IMG/VR virus record: IMGVR_UViG_3300038315_000737
Span: 1 to 33,769 of that record
Length of the DNA stretch: 33,769 nt
Direction: 5' to 3' (one strand)
Origin: a virus
Lineage: Duplodnaviria; Caudoviricetes
Part shown: positions 13,689-22,008 of the stretch, one piece after another
How positions within the stretch are numbered: position 1 is the stretch's first letter
Layout: every line of letters begins with the position of its first letter
Position numbers and translations under genes: made by a program
The notes under the pieces: generated by a model
What the model was told of the DNA's origin: nothing
Databases searched by the model: none
Seen by the model: the letters and a program-made list of their open reading frames with translations, nothing else

Positions 13689-13905
13689 CGGTTTCTCCTT
13701 CCTTTCGGCGCTTGAGTTCGGCTTCGACCGCTGGCATGATATTGGTGTTGCGTGCCAAACGATCAAGCAGTTGCAATGCCTTCATCGCCCGGTTGTCGAA
13801 TGCGTCGTCCAATGCTTCAGCGAAGTCGCTGATAAGTTCTTTTTGTGTGCCTCGCGCTGTCATGTCTCTGTCGATGTTTTGGGTTAGCGTACTTATTAGC
13901 ATCAT
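13678..13905 (-). CDS. Hypothetical helical protein (75 aa)
   Basis: ATGA-coupled to the pentapeptide gene, overlaps the next start. Confidence 0.65.
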
Positions 13906-14630
13906 GCATCCCCCTGCTGCGAACCATCTTCTTCGGAGTATTTCCCTACCAGTTCCAACCGCTCACAACGGGCTTTTCCGTCCGTGTTATACGGCACAAC
14001 CACCCCGGCAATATCGGCACAGGGTGAGCCGTCGTCATGGAGCGTTCTGATCCGGCATTTCCATGTCTGCATCAGAGTGTTGAACTTTGTGTATTCAAGC
14101 GTTCCAAAATTCACGCCACAGCCACAGGGATCGGTTGGCATACGGTTGACTGTTTCGGTGAGAAACTCGCCCGGCTGTATCTTCCAGTCAGCAGGCGAAG
14201 AATAGTATTCGCCGAACGATTTGTAAACGATCCAGCCTCGTCCGTCATGGTTGAAGTTTTCAGCCAGCCAAGCCGAAGGTGAAAGCAGGCCTTTGGCACC
14301 GCTGAGATTTGCGTCAATGAGATTTGCGTCAATGAGATTTGCGTTACTGAGATTTGCGTTACTGAGATTTGCGTTACTGAGATTTGCGTTACTGAGATTT
14401 GCGTCAATGAGATTTGCGTTACGGAGATTTGCGTTACTGAGATTTGCGTCAATGAGATTTGCGTTACTGAGATTTGCGTTACGGAGATTTGCGTTACGGA
14501 GATTTGCGTCAATGAGATTTGCGTTACTGAGATTTGCGTTACTGAGATTTGCGTTACTGAGATCTGCGTCAATGAGATTTGCAGCCTCTGTGCTGAAAAT
14601 GATTTGGCCTTCTCGGTTTTTGATGTCCAT
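13902..14630 (-). CDS. Pentapeptide-repeat protein with a C-terminal Cys-containing domain
   Basis: AAGGGG RBS before ATG 14630; 19 A(N/D)Lxx repeats; C-terminal CGCGVNF...[11 protein letters not shown]. Confidence 0.9.
14304..14582. repeat. 15-bp tandem repeat array (18 full units plus a partial)
   Basis: gagatttgcg followed by ttact, tcaat or ttacg; one unit has gagatctgcg. Confidence 0.95.
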
Positions 14631-14640
14631 GATATTCCCC

Positions 14641-14997
14641 TTATGAGTTGAAAAGCATTTTGATACCGTTGCGATATGCCAGTTCGCAGGCAACTTGCGC
14701 GTTACGACTGACGGCAGCACCAGTACGTGAGCTGTTACCATATTTAACTGTGACGGTTGCAAATGTTGCCGGGATGCCGTTTCGTGCTGCCTGCTTGGTT
14801 CTCTCGCGTACCCGTTCTACGCCGAACAGTTCTGCGAGGTTTACAGCACCTGCGTATGTCAGGATAGAGCTGCCGTTTGCCCCGCGAAAGTATAGAGGCT
14901 CGGTGTCTATCGATTCGCCTGCCAAATGGCGCAAGGCTATTAAAGCCTCACGCCGTTCGGTTGCGACCATTTCGGATGTTGTTGGGAAGCGGTTCAT
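14641..14997 (-). CDS. Hypothetical protein, possibly a compact Rad52/Sak-like annealing protein
   Basis: RBS and ATGA coupling at 14997; [14 protein letters not shown]...ATVTV...G...[11 protein letters not shown] pattern resembles the Rad52 fold (weak). Confidence 0.4.
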
Positions 14998-15901: not shown

Positions 15902-16108
15902 ATGCAGGAATTAACCGTAGATAATGATAAAATACGCGCATTATTATGGCAACGCCAACGCGCAGTTGCAGAAAAGGCAGATCTTCACCCGGACACACTA
16001 GCGCGAAAGATAAAAGGCCAGAACGGATGGACGATAGAAGATCTAAATAAACTGGCGAAGGCTGGCGGTTTTGATGTGAGTGAAATTGTGAGGATTGGAA
16101 ATGGGTAG
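15902..16108 (+). CDS. Cro/XRE-like HTH regulator
   Basis: AGGAGG RBS; QRAVAEKADLHPDTLARKIKGQNGWTIEDL helix-turn-helix; first gene after the rightward promoter. Confidence 0.85.
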   Translation: MQELTVDNDKIRALLWQRQRAVAEKADLHPDTLARKIKGQNGWTIEDLNKLAKAGGFDVSEIVRIGNG

Positions 16109-16604
16109 TACATTATATGTGGTTTATTGTAAGGCTGGCGACGAACTCTTTGCCAAAATCGGTGTCGCCAAGATTCCGAAAACGCGAATGATGTCACTAC
16201 AGATAGGAAATCCTTTACTTCTTGACACATTCAAGGTTTACTACCTGTGCAATGCGTGGAAAGTTGAGAGAAGGATACATGAAGCGTTAAGCGCATATCA
16301 TGTGCGTGGTGAGTGGTTCAGATGCAGCGAACACTTGAACAGCACAGTTCAGCGGATAATAGATGAGTACGGGGTTTTTGGGCAAGAGGAAGCATCATCC
16401 GATAATGAATGGCTGGAAACAAACATTGCGAACTTGCGGCAAGCATTACTAGGTCGAAAAACAGAGTTTCGCTGTGCTACGGGTACTGAGCCGGATACGC
16501 TGTTGCGTTTTCTGGAGGCAGGCAACAGATTGACCTTTGATGAGGCATGGTCTATTGCTGAAAAAACGGGTATGTGTTCTCCGACATTGAAGAGTTGGTA
16601 TTGA
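16101..16604 (+). CDS. T5orf172/MUG113 GIY-YIG-like nuclease fused to a Cro-like HTH
   Basis: YVV...KIG...R...LQIGNP...ERRIH...RGEWF; C-terminal NLRQALL...PDTLLR...LTFDE resembles the upstream Cro. Confidence 0.8.
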   Translation: MGSTLYVVYCKAGDELFAKIGVAKIPKTRMMSLQIGNPLLLDTFKVYYLCNAWKVERRIHEALSAYHVRGEWFRCSEHLNSTVQRIIDEYGVFGQEEASSDNEWLETNIANLRQALLGRKTEFRCATGTEPDTLLRFLEAGNRLTFDEAWSIAEKTGMCSPTLKSWY

Positions 16605-16660
16605 ACGCGCTGGCAGATTTCGCCAAAGTGGATATTGATCAGATTGTGAGGATTGAATAA
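16586..16660 (+). pseudogene. Orphan 3' end of a Cro-like gene
   Basis: Reads IEELVLNALADFAKVDIDQIVRIE* versus Cro IEDLNKLAKAGGFDVSEIVRIGNG*; its TAA overlaps the methyltransferase ATG. Confidence 0.6.
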
Positions 16661-18447
16661 TGAAATACTTCAGCCTATTCTCTGGTATCGGTGGTTTTGA
16701 GTATGGCTTTCCTGCTGATTGGGAATGTGTCGGCTATTCGGAGGTTGACAAATACGCGCAAAGCGTCTATGCTTACCACTATCCGAACCATGAAGGATAT
16801 GGCGATGCAACTCGAATTGATACCAGATCCATCAGTGACTTCGATCTGCTCTGTGCGGGATTTCCCTGCCAGTCTTTTTCAGTGGCTGGACGACGTAAGG
16901 GACTGGCAGACAGTCGGGGCACACTCTTTTTTGAGATCGCTCGGATTCTCACCGACAAAAGACCCCGATATTTTCTACTTGAAAATGTCAAAGGTCTACT
17001 TAGTCATGACGATGGAAAAACTTTCGCGCAAATCATTGGGATTCTCGCCGACATTGGCTATCTGGTGCAATGGCAAGTCCTCAATAGTAAGCATTTCGGC
17101 GTCCCACAAAACCGGGAGCGCATCTTCATTGTCGGACATCTTAGAGGAACAAGTAGACCCGAAGTATTTCCTATCGGAGAAGGCGACGGACAGGTTAATG
17201 CGTCGAGGAATGGGGAAGATTGTGTTGCCGGCAGCCTCGGAACCCGAAGCGGAGATAGGAGCTTCAACGGAAGCACGACAGTGATTTACGACGTACCAAG
17301 AGGCAAGAACAAGGGCGGATTCTCCGCTCGTAGTGAGATGCGAACAATAACCCAGAGCAAGTTTGAGCATAACACGATGATTCTCCACACTAACAAAAGT
17401 GGCAATGTTGCCGAACATACAGCGGCAAGCTGCGCATTGCGAAGCGGGGCGAGTCATAACTATCAGGTGGTGGCACTCACCGAAGCGCGAACGGAGGAAG
17501 CGAAAGCCATACGGCGAGAAGCACAGCGGAACGGCAAAGACTATTGCCCCAGGCGTGGCAAAGAACTAGTTGAACGTACTGATGGGCTAGGAAACTGTGT
17601 GACAGGTACGCAAAGCAAGGAGATGTTCGGTGCAAAAGACCGTCAAATAAGAAGGCTCACACCGCTCGAATGCGAACGGCTTCAGGGCTTTCCCGAAATA
17701 GAAAAATATGTTATAATAGAAGTATGCAAAGAAGATCGAAGGAAAAATGTAAATGCGGAAAGTCAAAATCGCAAGTCGCAAAAACTTGTTGGGGATGTAG
17801 GAAACGACGATCCGCAAGAAAATGTGCAATATGTGGCGAGGTTTTTGAATACAAAAAATCAACAAACAAACAGGCATGTTCTCCCCGATGTGCTTATAGA
17901 TTGCGCGGAGAACGGAATAGAGATATACAATCAAGAAAAGTTACTCTTAAGTGCCAAAAATGCGGAAAGGAAAAATTGGTGTCACCCGCATATAAAAATA
18001 GGCGATTTTGTTCAACTGCTTGTTGGTATCAACATAATCAGGGAGAGAATAGCAAAGCTTGGCGAGGTGGGATTTCCTCAGAACGGACGATGTTCAACTC
18101 ATCTAAAGAATGGTCTGAAGCCCGGAAGATTATTTGGAAACGAGATGATGCGACCTGTCGGAGATGCGGAGAACGATTTAACCATACTCAAAGAACTTTT
18201 GAAGTTCACCACATTAAGCCATTCAAGCACAGAAAATTTAGAACAAAAGTTGCAAACCTTATTCTTGTTTGTAATCCGTGCCATAACTGGATACATTCCC
18301 AAAAGAATACTGGCTCAAAGTATCTTTACGATAGGAGTGAAAACTAAAGTTGGATACACTTACGGCGTAAGTGACACACAGCGATACAAAATGCTCGGCA
18401 ATGCGGTGACAACAACAGTGATACAGGCGATTTCAGAACGATTTTAG
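16660..18447 (+). CDS. dcm: C5 cytosine DNA methyltransferase with a 218-codon in-frame insertion
   Basis: SLFSGIGG (I), GFPCQSFS (IV), ENVKGL (VI), PQNRERIF (VIII), RRLTPLECERLQGFP (IX), RYKMLGNAV (X). Confidence 0.95.
   Translation: MKYFSLFSGIGGFEYGFPADWECVGYSEVDKYAQSVYAYHYPNHEGYGDATRIDTRSISDFDLLCAGFPCQSFSVAGRRKGLADSRGTLFFEIARILTDKRPRYFLLENVKGLLSHDDGKTFAQIIGILADIGYLVQWQVLNSKHFGVPQNRERIFIVGHLRGTSRPEVFPIGEGDGQVNASRNGEDCVAGSLGTRSGDRSFNGSTTVIYDVPRGKNKGGFSARSEMRTITQSKFEHNTMILHTNKSGNVAEHTAASCALRSGASHNYQVVALTEARTEEAKAIRREAQRNGKDYCPRRGKELVERTDGLGNCVTGTQSKEMFGAKDRQIRRLTPLECERLQGFPEIEKYVIIEVCKEDRRKNVNAESQNRKSQKLVGDVGNDDPQENVQYVARFLNTKNQQTNRHVLPDVLIDCAENGIEIYNQEKLLLSAKNAERKNWCHPHIKIGDFVQLLVGINIIRERIAKLGEVGFPQNGRCSTHLKNGLKPGRLFGNEMMRPVGDAENDLTILKELLKFTTLSHSSTENLEQKLQTLFLFVIRAITGYIPKRILAQSIFTIGVKTKVGYTYGVSDTQRYKMLGNAVTTTVIQAISERF
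16805..17284 (+). CDS. Overprinted (+1 frame) methyltransferase beta-subunit-like polypeptide
   Basis: AAGGA RBS 7 nt before ATG 16805 (MQLEL); contains SLSDILEEQVDPKYFLSEKA; arrangement recalls M.EcoHK31I alpha/beta. Confidence 0.7.
   Translation: MQLELIPDPSVTSICSVRDFPASLFQWLDDVRDWQTVGAHSFLRSLGFSPTKDPDIFYLKMSKVYLVMTMEKLSRKSLGFSPTLAIWCNGKSSIVSISASHKTGSASSLSDILEEQVDPKYFLSEKATDRLMRRGMGKIVLPAASEPEAEIGASTEARQ
17709..17717 (+). promoter_or_regulatory. Extended -10 promoter for a probable leaderless HNH mRNA
   Basis: TGtTATAAT at 17709-17717, then 6 nt, then ATG 17724 with no Shine-Dalgarno. Confidence 0.65.
17724..18347 (+). CDS. Zinc-finger HNH (homing-type) endonuclease, nested in dcm
   Basis: CxC..CxxC and two CxxC...CSxxC fingers, GENSKAWRGG, RDDATCRRC...EVHHIKP...NLILVCNPCHNWIH. 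Confidence 0.9.
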   Translation: MQRRSKEKCKCGKSKSQVAKTCWGCRKRRSARKCAICGEVFEYKKSTNKQACSPRCAYRLRGERNRDIQSRKVTLKCQKCGKEKLVSPAYKNRRFCSTACWYQHNQGENSKAWRGGISSERTMFNSSKEWSEARKIIWKRDDATCRRCGERFNHTQRTFEVHHIKPFKHRKFRTKVANLILVCNPCHNWIHSQKNTGSKYLYDRSEN

Positions 18448-21022: not shown

Positions 21023-21054
21023 CGGTGAAAATGAAAGAAATTGGAGGTGAAACA

Positions 21055-21255
21055 GTGTCGATTTTACTTGAAGCATATCACAAAGAAATGCGTAGAAATC
21101 CCAGGTTTTGGGAGGATTACGCATACCAGACTGAATGGAATAATTGGGCAGTGGACGTGCATCATCAGACATATGATCGTCTCTACAATGAAATGTGCTT
21201 CGATCTTGTTGCGGTATGCCGTGAGTGTCATGCAAAAATCCACAAAAACACATAG
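21055..21255 (+). CDS. Degenerate HNH endonuclease (apparent internal deletion)
   Basis: GGAGG RBS plus GTG; VHHQTYDRLYNE...DLVAVCRECHAKIH present but the first CxxC is absent. Confidence 0.6.
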   Translation: MSILLEAYHKEMRRNPRFWEDYAYQTEWNNWAVDVHHQTYDRLYNEMCFDLVAVCRECHAKIHKNT

Positions 21256-21531: not shown

Positions 21532-22008
21532 ATGAATGCAGACGAATATCGCGCATTGCACAAAAGAACAAAAGACGAGTGTACTGGTTGTGGTAAGACT
21601 GTCCGTCCACCACGCCGGAGATGGTGTTCTGACTTATGTATAGAAACGCATCGAGTTCTATATGATTGGGGCTATGCAAAACATTTAGTGTTCAAGCGGG
21701 ATCAGGGCGTTTGCTGTGAGTGTTCGTGCTCTACCGTGTTTATCCAAAAAGTCCGGTACCGTGTTCGGCAGATAGACCGTAATATCGGATTTTACGCGGA
21801 TAAGCTATGGATTCAGCAAGGCTTTGACAATATGGCAGACAGGCTATATCATGTGGATCACATCATGGCACGCCGTGATGGTGGGGATAATTCGTTGGGT
21901 AATCTCCGCACCTTATGCGTGCCATGTCACAAGAAAAGAACAAAGGCACAGCGGGCGGCGTGGAGAAGTTCCGCCCCACCAGACGCGCCGCAACTTCTCC
22001 TGTTTTAG
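21532..22008 (+). CDS. HNH endonuclease
   Basis: CTGC..WCSDLC, RDQGVCCEC, VDHI...GG.N...NLRTLCVPCH. Confidence 0.9.
   Translation: MNADEYRALHKRTKDECTGCGKTVRPPRRRWCSDLCIETHRVLYDWGYAKHLVFKRDQGVCCECSCSTVFIQKVRYRVRQIDRNIGFYADKLWIQQGFDNMADRLYHVDHIMARRDGGDNSLGNLRTLCVPCHKKRTKAQRAAWRSSAPPDAPQLLLF

Follow-up and report, generated by a model that had tools for sequence, protein, structure and literature searches.

An HNH endonuclease gene overprinted at the motif IX-X junction of a phage C5-cytosine methyltransferase gene, a likely homing element

Described systems and the architecture of the dcm locus

The closest described arrangement is the ShiLan domain, published in 2025: a mycobacteriophage methylase carries an insert of 202 aa that has no stops, and the third frame of this insert holds an HNH gene (PMC11855218). 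In the accessible part of that article, no intron or intein signal is reported for the insert, a loop and leaderless translation are proposed, the evidence is entirely computational, and the methylase is described as non-essential (PMC11855218). The phylogeny of ShiLan and the insertion in Pacc40 gp60 are treated in the available sections of another article (PMC9957025), and another such methylase appears in those of PMC12613952. Other systems to consider, each according to the accessible text of its source, are mobE of Aeh1, a genes-in-pieces case in nrdA (PMC3045599), inteins with out-of-frame nucleases (bioRxiv 10.1101/2025.01.02.630785), and M.EcoHK31I, a C5-methylase whose alpha and beta chains are encoded in overlapping frames (PMC2836561).

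The window analyzed here, a stretch of 33,769 nucleotides, is a phage contig with terminase large subunit and portal genes (PHROGs) and a primase-polymerase gene (Pfam). It carries the C5-cytosine methyltransferase gene dcm (Table 1), with motif I at aa 7, the catalytic PC at aa 69 to 70 and ENV at aa 108. Between motifs IX and X lies an insert with a GC content of 38.5%, compared with 50.3% in the upstream part of dcm, which the methylase frame reads as a passenger peptide and the +2 frame as an HNH endonuclease whose gene leaves just 26 nt of the insert uncovered on the 5' side and 4 nt on the 3' side. The nuclease has eight Cys pairs, H162-H163, N178, H187 and H191, supported by invariant columns in an alignment of 15 HNH-frame sequences. 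The lengths, frame and margins of insert and gene had been given in a preliminary description of the sequence and were confirmed by translation and by the PF01844 match. As for the exact ends, close empty alleles of the relative L028 read FPD-N-FT and L028 itself reads FPE-insert-G-FT, so that the insert boundary is uncertain by about one codon, and the G codon at 18352-18354 may belong to the element. The passenger peptide had no match in Pfam (E up to 1), NCBIfam or PHROGs, and the ESM Atlas gave none that was usable.

Table 1. Features of the dcm locus (window coordinates).
Feature	Positions	Strand	Evidence
C5-cytosine methyltransferase gene dcm, 595 aa including insert	16660..18447	+	PF00145 E 4e-76, TIGR00675
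Motif IX ECERLQGFPE, 5' flank of the insertion site	17668..17697	+	Translation; nearly invariant in 150-sequence alignment
Weak -35 box position, TTTCCC (putative)	17689..17694	+	Host Phe-Pro codons; 17 nt before -10 box
Insert (passenger peptide in dcm frame), 654 nt, 218 codons, 0 stops	17698..18351	+	
Host-frame 5' strand, aa 347-356	17698..17727	+	Alternating hydrophobicity (105 relatives); model block pLDDT 91 and 74
Extended -10 promoter-like box TGTTATAAT	17709..17717	+	TAnnnT at fixed offset; function inferred
HNH endonuclease gene, +2 frame, 207 aa	17724..18347 (ATG 17724; TAA 18345-18347)	+	PF01844 E 9e-10, PHROG HNH families
Host-frame predicted helix, aa 524-543, over HNH active-site codons	18229..18288	+	Model; fixed CxxCH codons; ratios 0.41 and 0.59
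Host-frame 3' strand, aa 555-564	18322..18351	+	Alternating hydrophobicity (105 relatives); model block pLDDT 80 and 90
3' flank, GYT plus motif X (GNAV) through stop	18352..18447	+	Translation, alignment, model

Elsewhere in the window, a T5orf172/MUG113 nuclease-like gene lies directly upstream of dcm (16095-16604, +), and further nuclease-like genes are an HNH gene (21532-22008, +) and a short ORF ending in CxxCH (21025-21255, +). A Mom-family DNA modification gene (PF25680; 27259-28002, +) stands just before the terminase large subunit gene, and a pentapeptide-repeat-like ORF (13902-14762, -) is open over its repeat in other frames as well (14111-14572 on the minus and 14251-14646 on the plus strand). 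The 5' half of dcm holds a second overlapping ORF, independent of the insert, in the +1 frame (16691-17284, +; 197 aa), which matches phrog_16143 'DNA methyltransferase' (E 2.6e-15). No stop interrupts this frame in 48 of 102 empty alleles and 44 of 77 filled ones, so the dcm gene may encode three products.

Compared with ShiLan, as presented in the available text, the dcm locus has an insert of about 200 codons open in the methylase frame, a zinc-finger HNH gene in the third frame that nearly fills it, no intron or intein signal and a patchy distribution; for both, a retained loop and leaderless initiation are proposed, from computation only. The HNH gene begins 18 bp from the 5' end of the insert in ShiLan and 26 here, and both stop within the last few bases. 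The preliminary description had left open whether such an architecture had been described, and the 2025 report of the ShiLan domain answers that question (PMC11855218, in its accessible part). However, ShiLan gp65 is an amino-methylase (DPPY motif) with the insertion at a different site, as far as that text goes, whereas the host here is a C5-methylase occupied at the IX-X junction. Identity between the two HNH proteins is 28% over 137 aa, with the family profile aligning to the zinc-finger part alone, and the host-frame peptides show no match to each other. In the published text available, ShiLan is represented by few copies with little divergence, whereas the dcm IX-X family has at least 108 diverged members, measurable selection in both frames and a conserved internal promoter-like box. 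Membership in the named ShiLan family was rejected, since host class, site and insert similarity in both frames all differ; with the same architecture but another site, host class and sequence, the element would work like ShiLan without being of that family. By sequence comparison, it is a separate, much larger family of ShiLan-type architecture in another methylase class and at another site. The 100 BLASTP matches of the ShiLan paper may include members of the C5 IX-X family, and no paper on this family was found in the literature searched, which lay mostly outside subscription journals. Another case is L007:1484-3133 (Mycobacterium phage HanShotFirst gp60), an amino-methylase whose own frame is open and whose +1 frame holds an HNH-like ORF of 211 codons; its insert lies upstream of the ShiLan site and scores 48 bits with the family profile, versus 29 for ShiLan.

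The mobE case, in the accessible text, likewise places a mobile endonuclease in a coding region without RNA or protein splicing and leaves element-derived residues in the host protein, but it splits the host into two polypeptides, whereas the dcm host stays one open frame across the nuclease gene (PMC3045599). Homing introns and inteins resemble the dcm insert in their fixed site in a conserved motif, their empty and filled alleles and their nuclease cargo, but ribozyme or splicing-domain features were not detected in the dcm insert. M.EcoHK31I, from what is available of its description, likewise combines a C5-methylase gene with an additional chain encoded in a different frame, to which the ORF at 16691-17284 may be a parallel case; the nested chain of M.EcoHK31I is a methylase subunit with motif IX, whereas dcm has motif IX in its main frame and the gene in its insert encodes a nuclease (PMC2836561).

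Splicing signatures, open frames and selection in relatives

Signatures of splicing were looked for at the insert and in its relatives. Searched against Rfam at E values up to 10, the window region gave no intron match, and 18 relatives at the gathering threshold gave two tRNAs only and no intron. Conserved terminal nucleotides were not seen at the insert ends of 105 relatives, and junction folding and end-to-end pairing in 53 representatives equaled those of shuffles (mean z 0.01, -0.28 and 0.03). A group I or II intron was rejected, as there was no covariance-model match and the ends were neither conserved nor structured. Inteins are marked by C/S/A as first residue, N/Q as last, C/S/T as next and by a Hint domain (accessible text of PMC11855218). 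In the 105 relatives, the insert mostly begins with Ile or Val and ends in varying residues, and Gly follows it in 68%; given that the required residues were not seen and that the window's host-frame peptide lacks a Pfam match, an intein was rejected as well. In genes-in-pieces arrangements and in the T4 gene 60 bypass, the host frame is interrupted by a stop. With 0 host-frame stops in 150 dcm-embedded sequences, mobE-type genes-in-pieces and the gene 60 bypass were also rejected. Overall, the Rfam, Pfam, junction and folding results bear out the earlier proposal of dual coding without an intron or intein signature, and it is likely that the insert is never spliced out.

A host-frame stop requires an Ile, Leu, Val or Met codon followed by A or G in the HNH frame, and there are few such positions; the chance value of 3e-5 first put on the open frame was therefore too small. 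With the HNH protein held fixed, the probability of a stop-free host frame was recomputed as 0.4% with uniform synonymous codons, 0.8% with codon order shuffled and 8% with its own synonymous codons permuted. Because these single-copy odds are weak, the significance comes from relatives. A protein search with the host-frame region returned 69 clusters (28 to 65% identity), all labelled PF00145, and 13 HNH-frame proteins were also found in protein search. Since a host-frame protein search can only find open frames, DNA patterns in the HNH frame, built on an alignment of 15 HNH-frame sequences, were used to avoid this bias. Three DNA collections were scanned, and the best 80 of 274 viral matches, the best 80 of at least 366 metagenome matches and all 19 genome matches were kept, which with the window gave 180 sequences (179 loci plus the window, duplicates counted in). 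A degenerate DNA pattern for the 3' junction matched only 3 viral loci, and among annotated phages the host-frame insert was covered in 0 of 147 matching records at 80% coverage, the HNH matches there being distant.

Motifs IX and X stand in one frame with 0 stops between them in 130 of the 180 sequences, and in 0 of 180 are they in different frames. The host frame is also stop-free in 20 further dcm copies, which are cut by contig ends or fall outside the motif pattern, so that homologous inserts share a common site and an open host frame in all 150 dcm-embedded sequences; the other 30 are more distant HNH genes outside dcm. The 130 sequences reduce to 114 distinct ones and 108 representatives (<90% identity), with an insert-region GC of 26% to 64%. 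HNH identity to the window's protein ranges from 36 to 77% across the family, and the HNH motifs are intact in 98 of the 108 representatives by a strict pattern. Under synonymous resampling, an insert would be expected to carry 5.3 stops, and 0.65 of 107 inserts (L021 excluded) to be free of them, an expectation to be read with the retrieved relatives not independent of one another. The last 110 codons are stop-free in 3 of 26 distinct non-dcm relatives versus 108 of 108 embedded copies.

Some copies depart from the common form. L021 and L058 have stops in the HNH frame while the methylase frame is still open, and by their sequence they are decayed elements with the passenger retained. Short HNH variants of about 175 to 185 aa, which lack the first zinc finger and keep both frames open, were seen in L012, L097, L098, L101, L102, L104, L108, L136 and others. 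At L066:1509-2082, an HNH gene lies outside dcm and its +1 frame is still passenger-like over about 95 codons; it is possibly a recombinant derived from an overprinted copy.

To evaluate selection in each frame, substitution-class ratios were calculated from 30 disjoint pairs of 68 to 98.5% nucleotide identity, with multiple hits uncorrected and 26 doubly synonymous differences. The ratio of HNH-altering to non-altering changes was 0.17 (0.15 to 0.19), and the host-frame ratios were 0.60 (0.49 to 0.73) and 0.62 (0.47 to 0.96). As a control, the same meaningless frame in 25 pairs of single-coding flanking genes gave 1.12 (0.77 to 1.57) and 1.70 (1.00 to 3.42). The host-frame ratios fall to 0.41 and 0.59 over HNH aa 161-207, and the interval for HNH aa 111-160 includes 1. 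Codon choice at the CxxCH motif is near-fixed in 34 GC-rich inserts (TGT in 32, TGC in 30 and CAT in 34 of 34), where the host frame reads Val, Ala and Ile; elsewhere these inserts prefer TGC to TGT (381 to 190), and in non-dcm relatives the CxxCH codons are mixed. The host-frame ratios and the fixed CxxCH codons indicate that the residues of the passenger matter, not merely the absence of stops. By these comparisons, both frames are under purifying selection.

A promoter-like box and the predicted passenger fold

The 26 nt ahead of the HNH gene contain an extended -10 promoter-like box (Table 1). Its hexamer spans -12 to -7 from the A of the HNH ATG, a leaderless geometry (7 nt before the ATG), and TAnnnT is found at this fixed offset in 69 of 108 filled versus 0 of 102 empty alleles, against a background of 0.6%. 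The TG extension is visible in the base tallies, and the HNH start codon lies exactly 29 nt past the Phe-Pro codons in 71 of 108 representatives. At the -35 position, after a 17-nt spacer, the host Phe codon gives TT, and among filled alleles 4 of 108 have an exact TTGACA there, compared with 0 of 102 empty ones. Where the HNH gene starts later, several copies show a run of purines ahead of the start codon. A generic promoter consensus scan of the window did not call an internal promoter. The T at -12 falls on a host wobble position and occurs in 53 of 71 copies overall and 15 of 26 GC-rich ones. Part of the -10 motif also codes for the hydrophobic strand, so two constraints overlap there. The preliminary description had missed this element in its reading of the 5' 26 nt, and the promoter-like box partly explains the Ile-rich, strand-like look of the insert start. 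From this geometry, we infer that the HNH protein is made from a separate, mostly leaderless transcript.

AlphaFold2, run on a 150-sequence alignment, gave a model of the whole methylase with a mean pLDDT of 66.6 and a pTM of 0.64. Confidence is mostly 90 or above over residues 1-160, motif IX (331-350) and motif X (561-595), and low (pLDDT under 50) over aa 367-384, 386-405 and 468-510. Against M.HhaI entries, the model scores Z 31, aligned from residue 1 to 595, with an rmsd of 2.2 over 228 residues to 1fjx; since methylases take up the list of structural matches to the whole protein, this comparison says nothing on the fold of the passenger. The methylase core is thus predicted to re-form around the insert, with strands at both ends. 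Both insert ends alternate hydrophobic and polar residues across relatives, which together with the modeled strands upholds the strand-like ends first noticed in the window, and the two end strands would pair as a beta stalk. The proposal of a tolerated passenger domain in the host protein likewise gains comparative evidence from the open frames, the host-frame selection and the predicted intact core.

Distribution, competing explanations and significance

Next, the distribution of the insert was evaluated with host N-terminal queries in three scans, which retrieved 240 loci, 182 of them complete enough to score. Insert-free alleles were found in 177 of these and filled ones in 5, and the nearest host relative of the window is itself empty (L188, 72%). 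When mapped on a FastTree tree of 179 hosts, presence of the insert requires 26 changes of state, of which well-supported branches (95 or more) force at least 10, and is still clustered when compared with shuffles (26 versus 58 changes). The HNH tree mostly tracks host subfamily (8 changes where at least 3 are needed; labels assigned roughly by pattern, some of them wrong), and HNH and host identity correlate (Spearman 0.63). In L110, L111 and L115, the insert falls within the HNH clade of the window, while the N-terminal domain and 3' flank are of another dcm subfamily; host-type flanks on both sides agree with the insert having moved by itself. This sparse sampling contained no near-identical inserts in distant hosts, and its most discordant pairs have 54 to 66% HNH identity; the transfers therefore look old or rare. 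The proposal of a homing element thus finds indirect support in the patchy distribution and some cross-subfamily transfers, and is tempered by an HNH tree that mostly follows host subfamily; taken together with the lack of near-identical inserts, the pattern makes homing likely but not necessarily current. Loss or ordinary recombination could account for part of the patchiness. The more distant HNH relatives in L065, L080, L176, L069 and L074 either split amino-methylase genes just after the SPPY motif or lie with a helicase-like ORF on one side and a methylase ORF on the other, by sequence a genes-in-pieces solution in a sister lineage.

We consider it probable that the insert is an HNH gene overprinted at one fixed dcm site, with the host frame kept open by selection, and that it is likely a selfish homing element and likely unspliced. 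Ribosomes on the dcm message would read straight through to a working 595-aa methylase, in which the passenger would hang off the IX-X loop on a two-stranded stalk, and the HNH protein would be made from its own, mostly leaderless, transcript. In a co-infection, a dcm allele lacking the insert would be nicked or cut by the nuclease close to the IX-X junction, and the insert would be copied into it during repair. Alternatively, the HNH protein could be a nuclease that benefits its phage, either by attacking the DNA of competing phages or of the host or as a restriction-like partner of the methylase, and spread by ordinary recombination. The strong purifying selection on HNH, its motifs being intact in nearly all representatives, and a tree that largely tracks host subfamily agree with such a role, but the use of a single site, within a conserved coding junction, in widely differing dcm subfamilies argues against it, as do distant relatives in or beside other methylase genes; the predominance of empty alleles, transfers with host-type flanks and decayed copies all fit a homing cycle. 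We regard a phage-benefit role as unlikely in place of homing, and the two can hold together.

Removal of the insert by a further RNA-splicing, protein-splicing or ribosome-hopping route, with the open frame as a fallback or a requirement of that route, seems decidedly improbable. The exact fixed site in a conserved motif junction is as in introns and inteins, and inteins with out-of-frame nucleases exist (bioRxiv 10.1101/2025.01.02.630785, in its available part), but the intron, terminal-nucleotide, Pfam and folding searches described above were all negative, and selection on the amino acids of the host frame would be left unexplained by RNA splicing. Slightly less probable still is a crippled or dispensable methylase whose frame stays open for a side reason, such as polarity avoidance or the amino-acid make-up of the HNH protein. 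The K/R/C-rich HNH protein has few stop-giving codons, which leaves a single-copy probability of up to 8%, and the ShiLan methylase is non-essential according to the accessible text (PMC11855218). Against this, non-dcm relatives carry stops in the host frame, selection acts on host-frame residues and not on stops alone, and motifs IX and X are nearly invariant in filled alleles.

Beyond the overprinted homing gene itself, a broader and rather doubtful proposal is that overprinting made a new, partly folded domain, with selection on its individual residues for docking to the methylase through the beta stalk. The promoter would then be completed only on landing, by way of the motif IX codons at the -35 position, and the element would represent an old and widespread third route beside introns and inteins, with sister nucleases that split their host methylases.

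These findings widen ShiLan-type insertion from about 10 mycobacteriophages to a broad family, whose divergence allows selection to be measured in both frames. The proposed promoter would answer a question left by the ShiLan paper, in its accessible part, of how the hidden nuclease is expressed. Such hidden nucleases are missed by annotation pipelines: the passenger goes under the name of a methylase in 69 protein clusters. The dcm IX-X family may serve as a direct system for asking whether a coding region can house a homing gene over time without splicing, and how an alternative frame gives rise to a protein domain.
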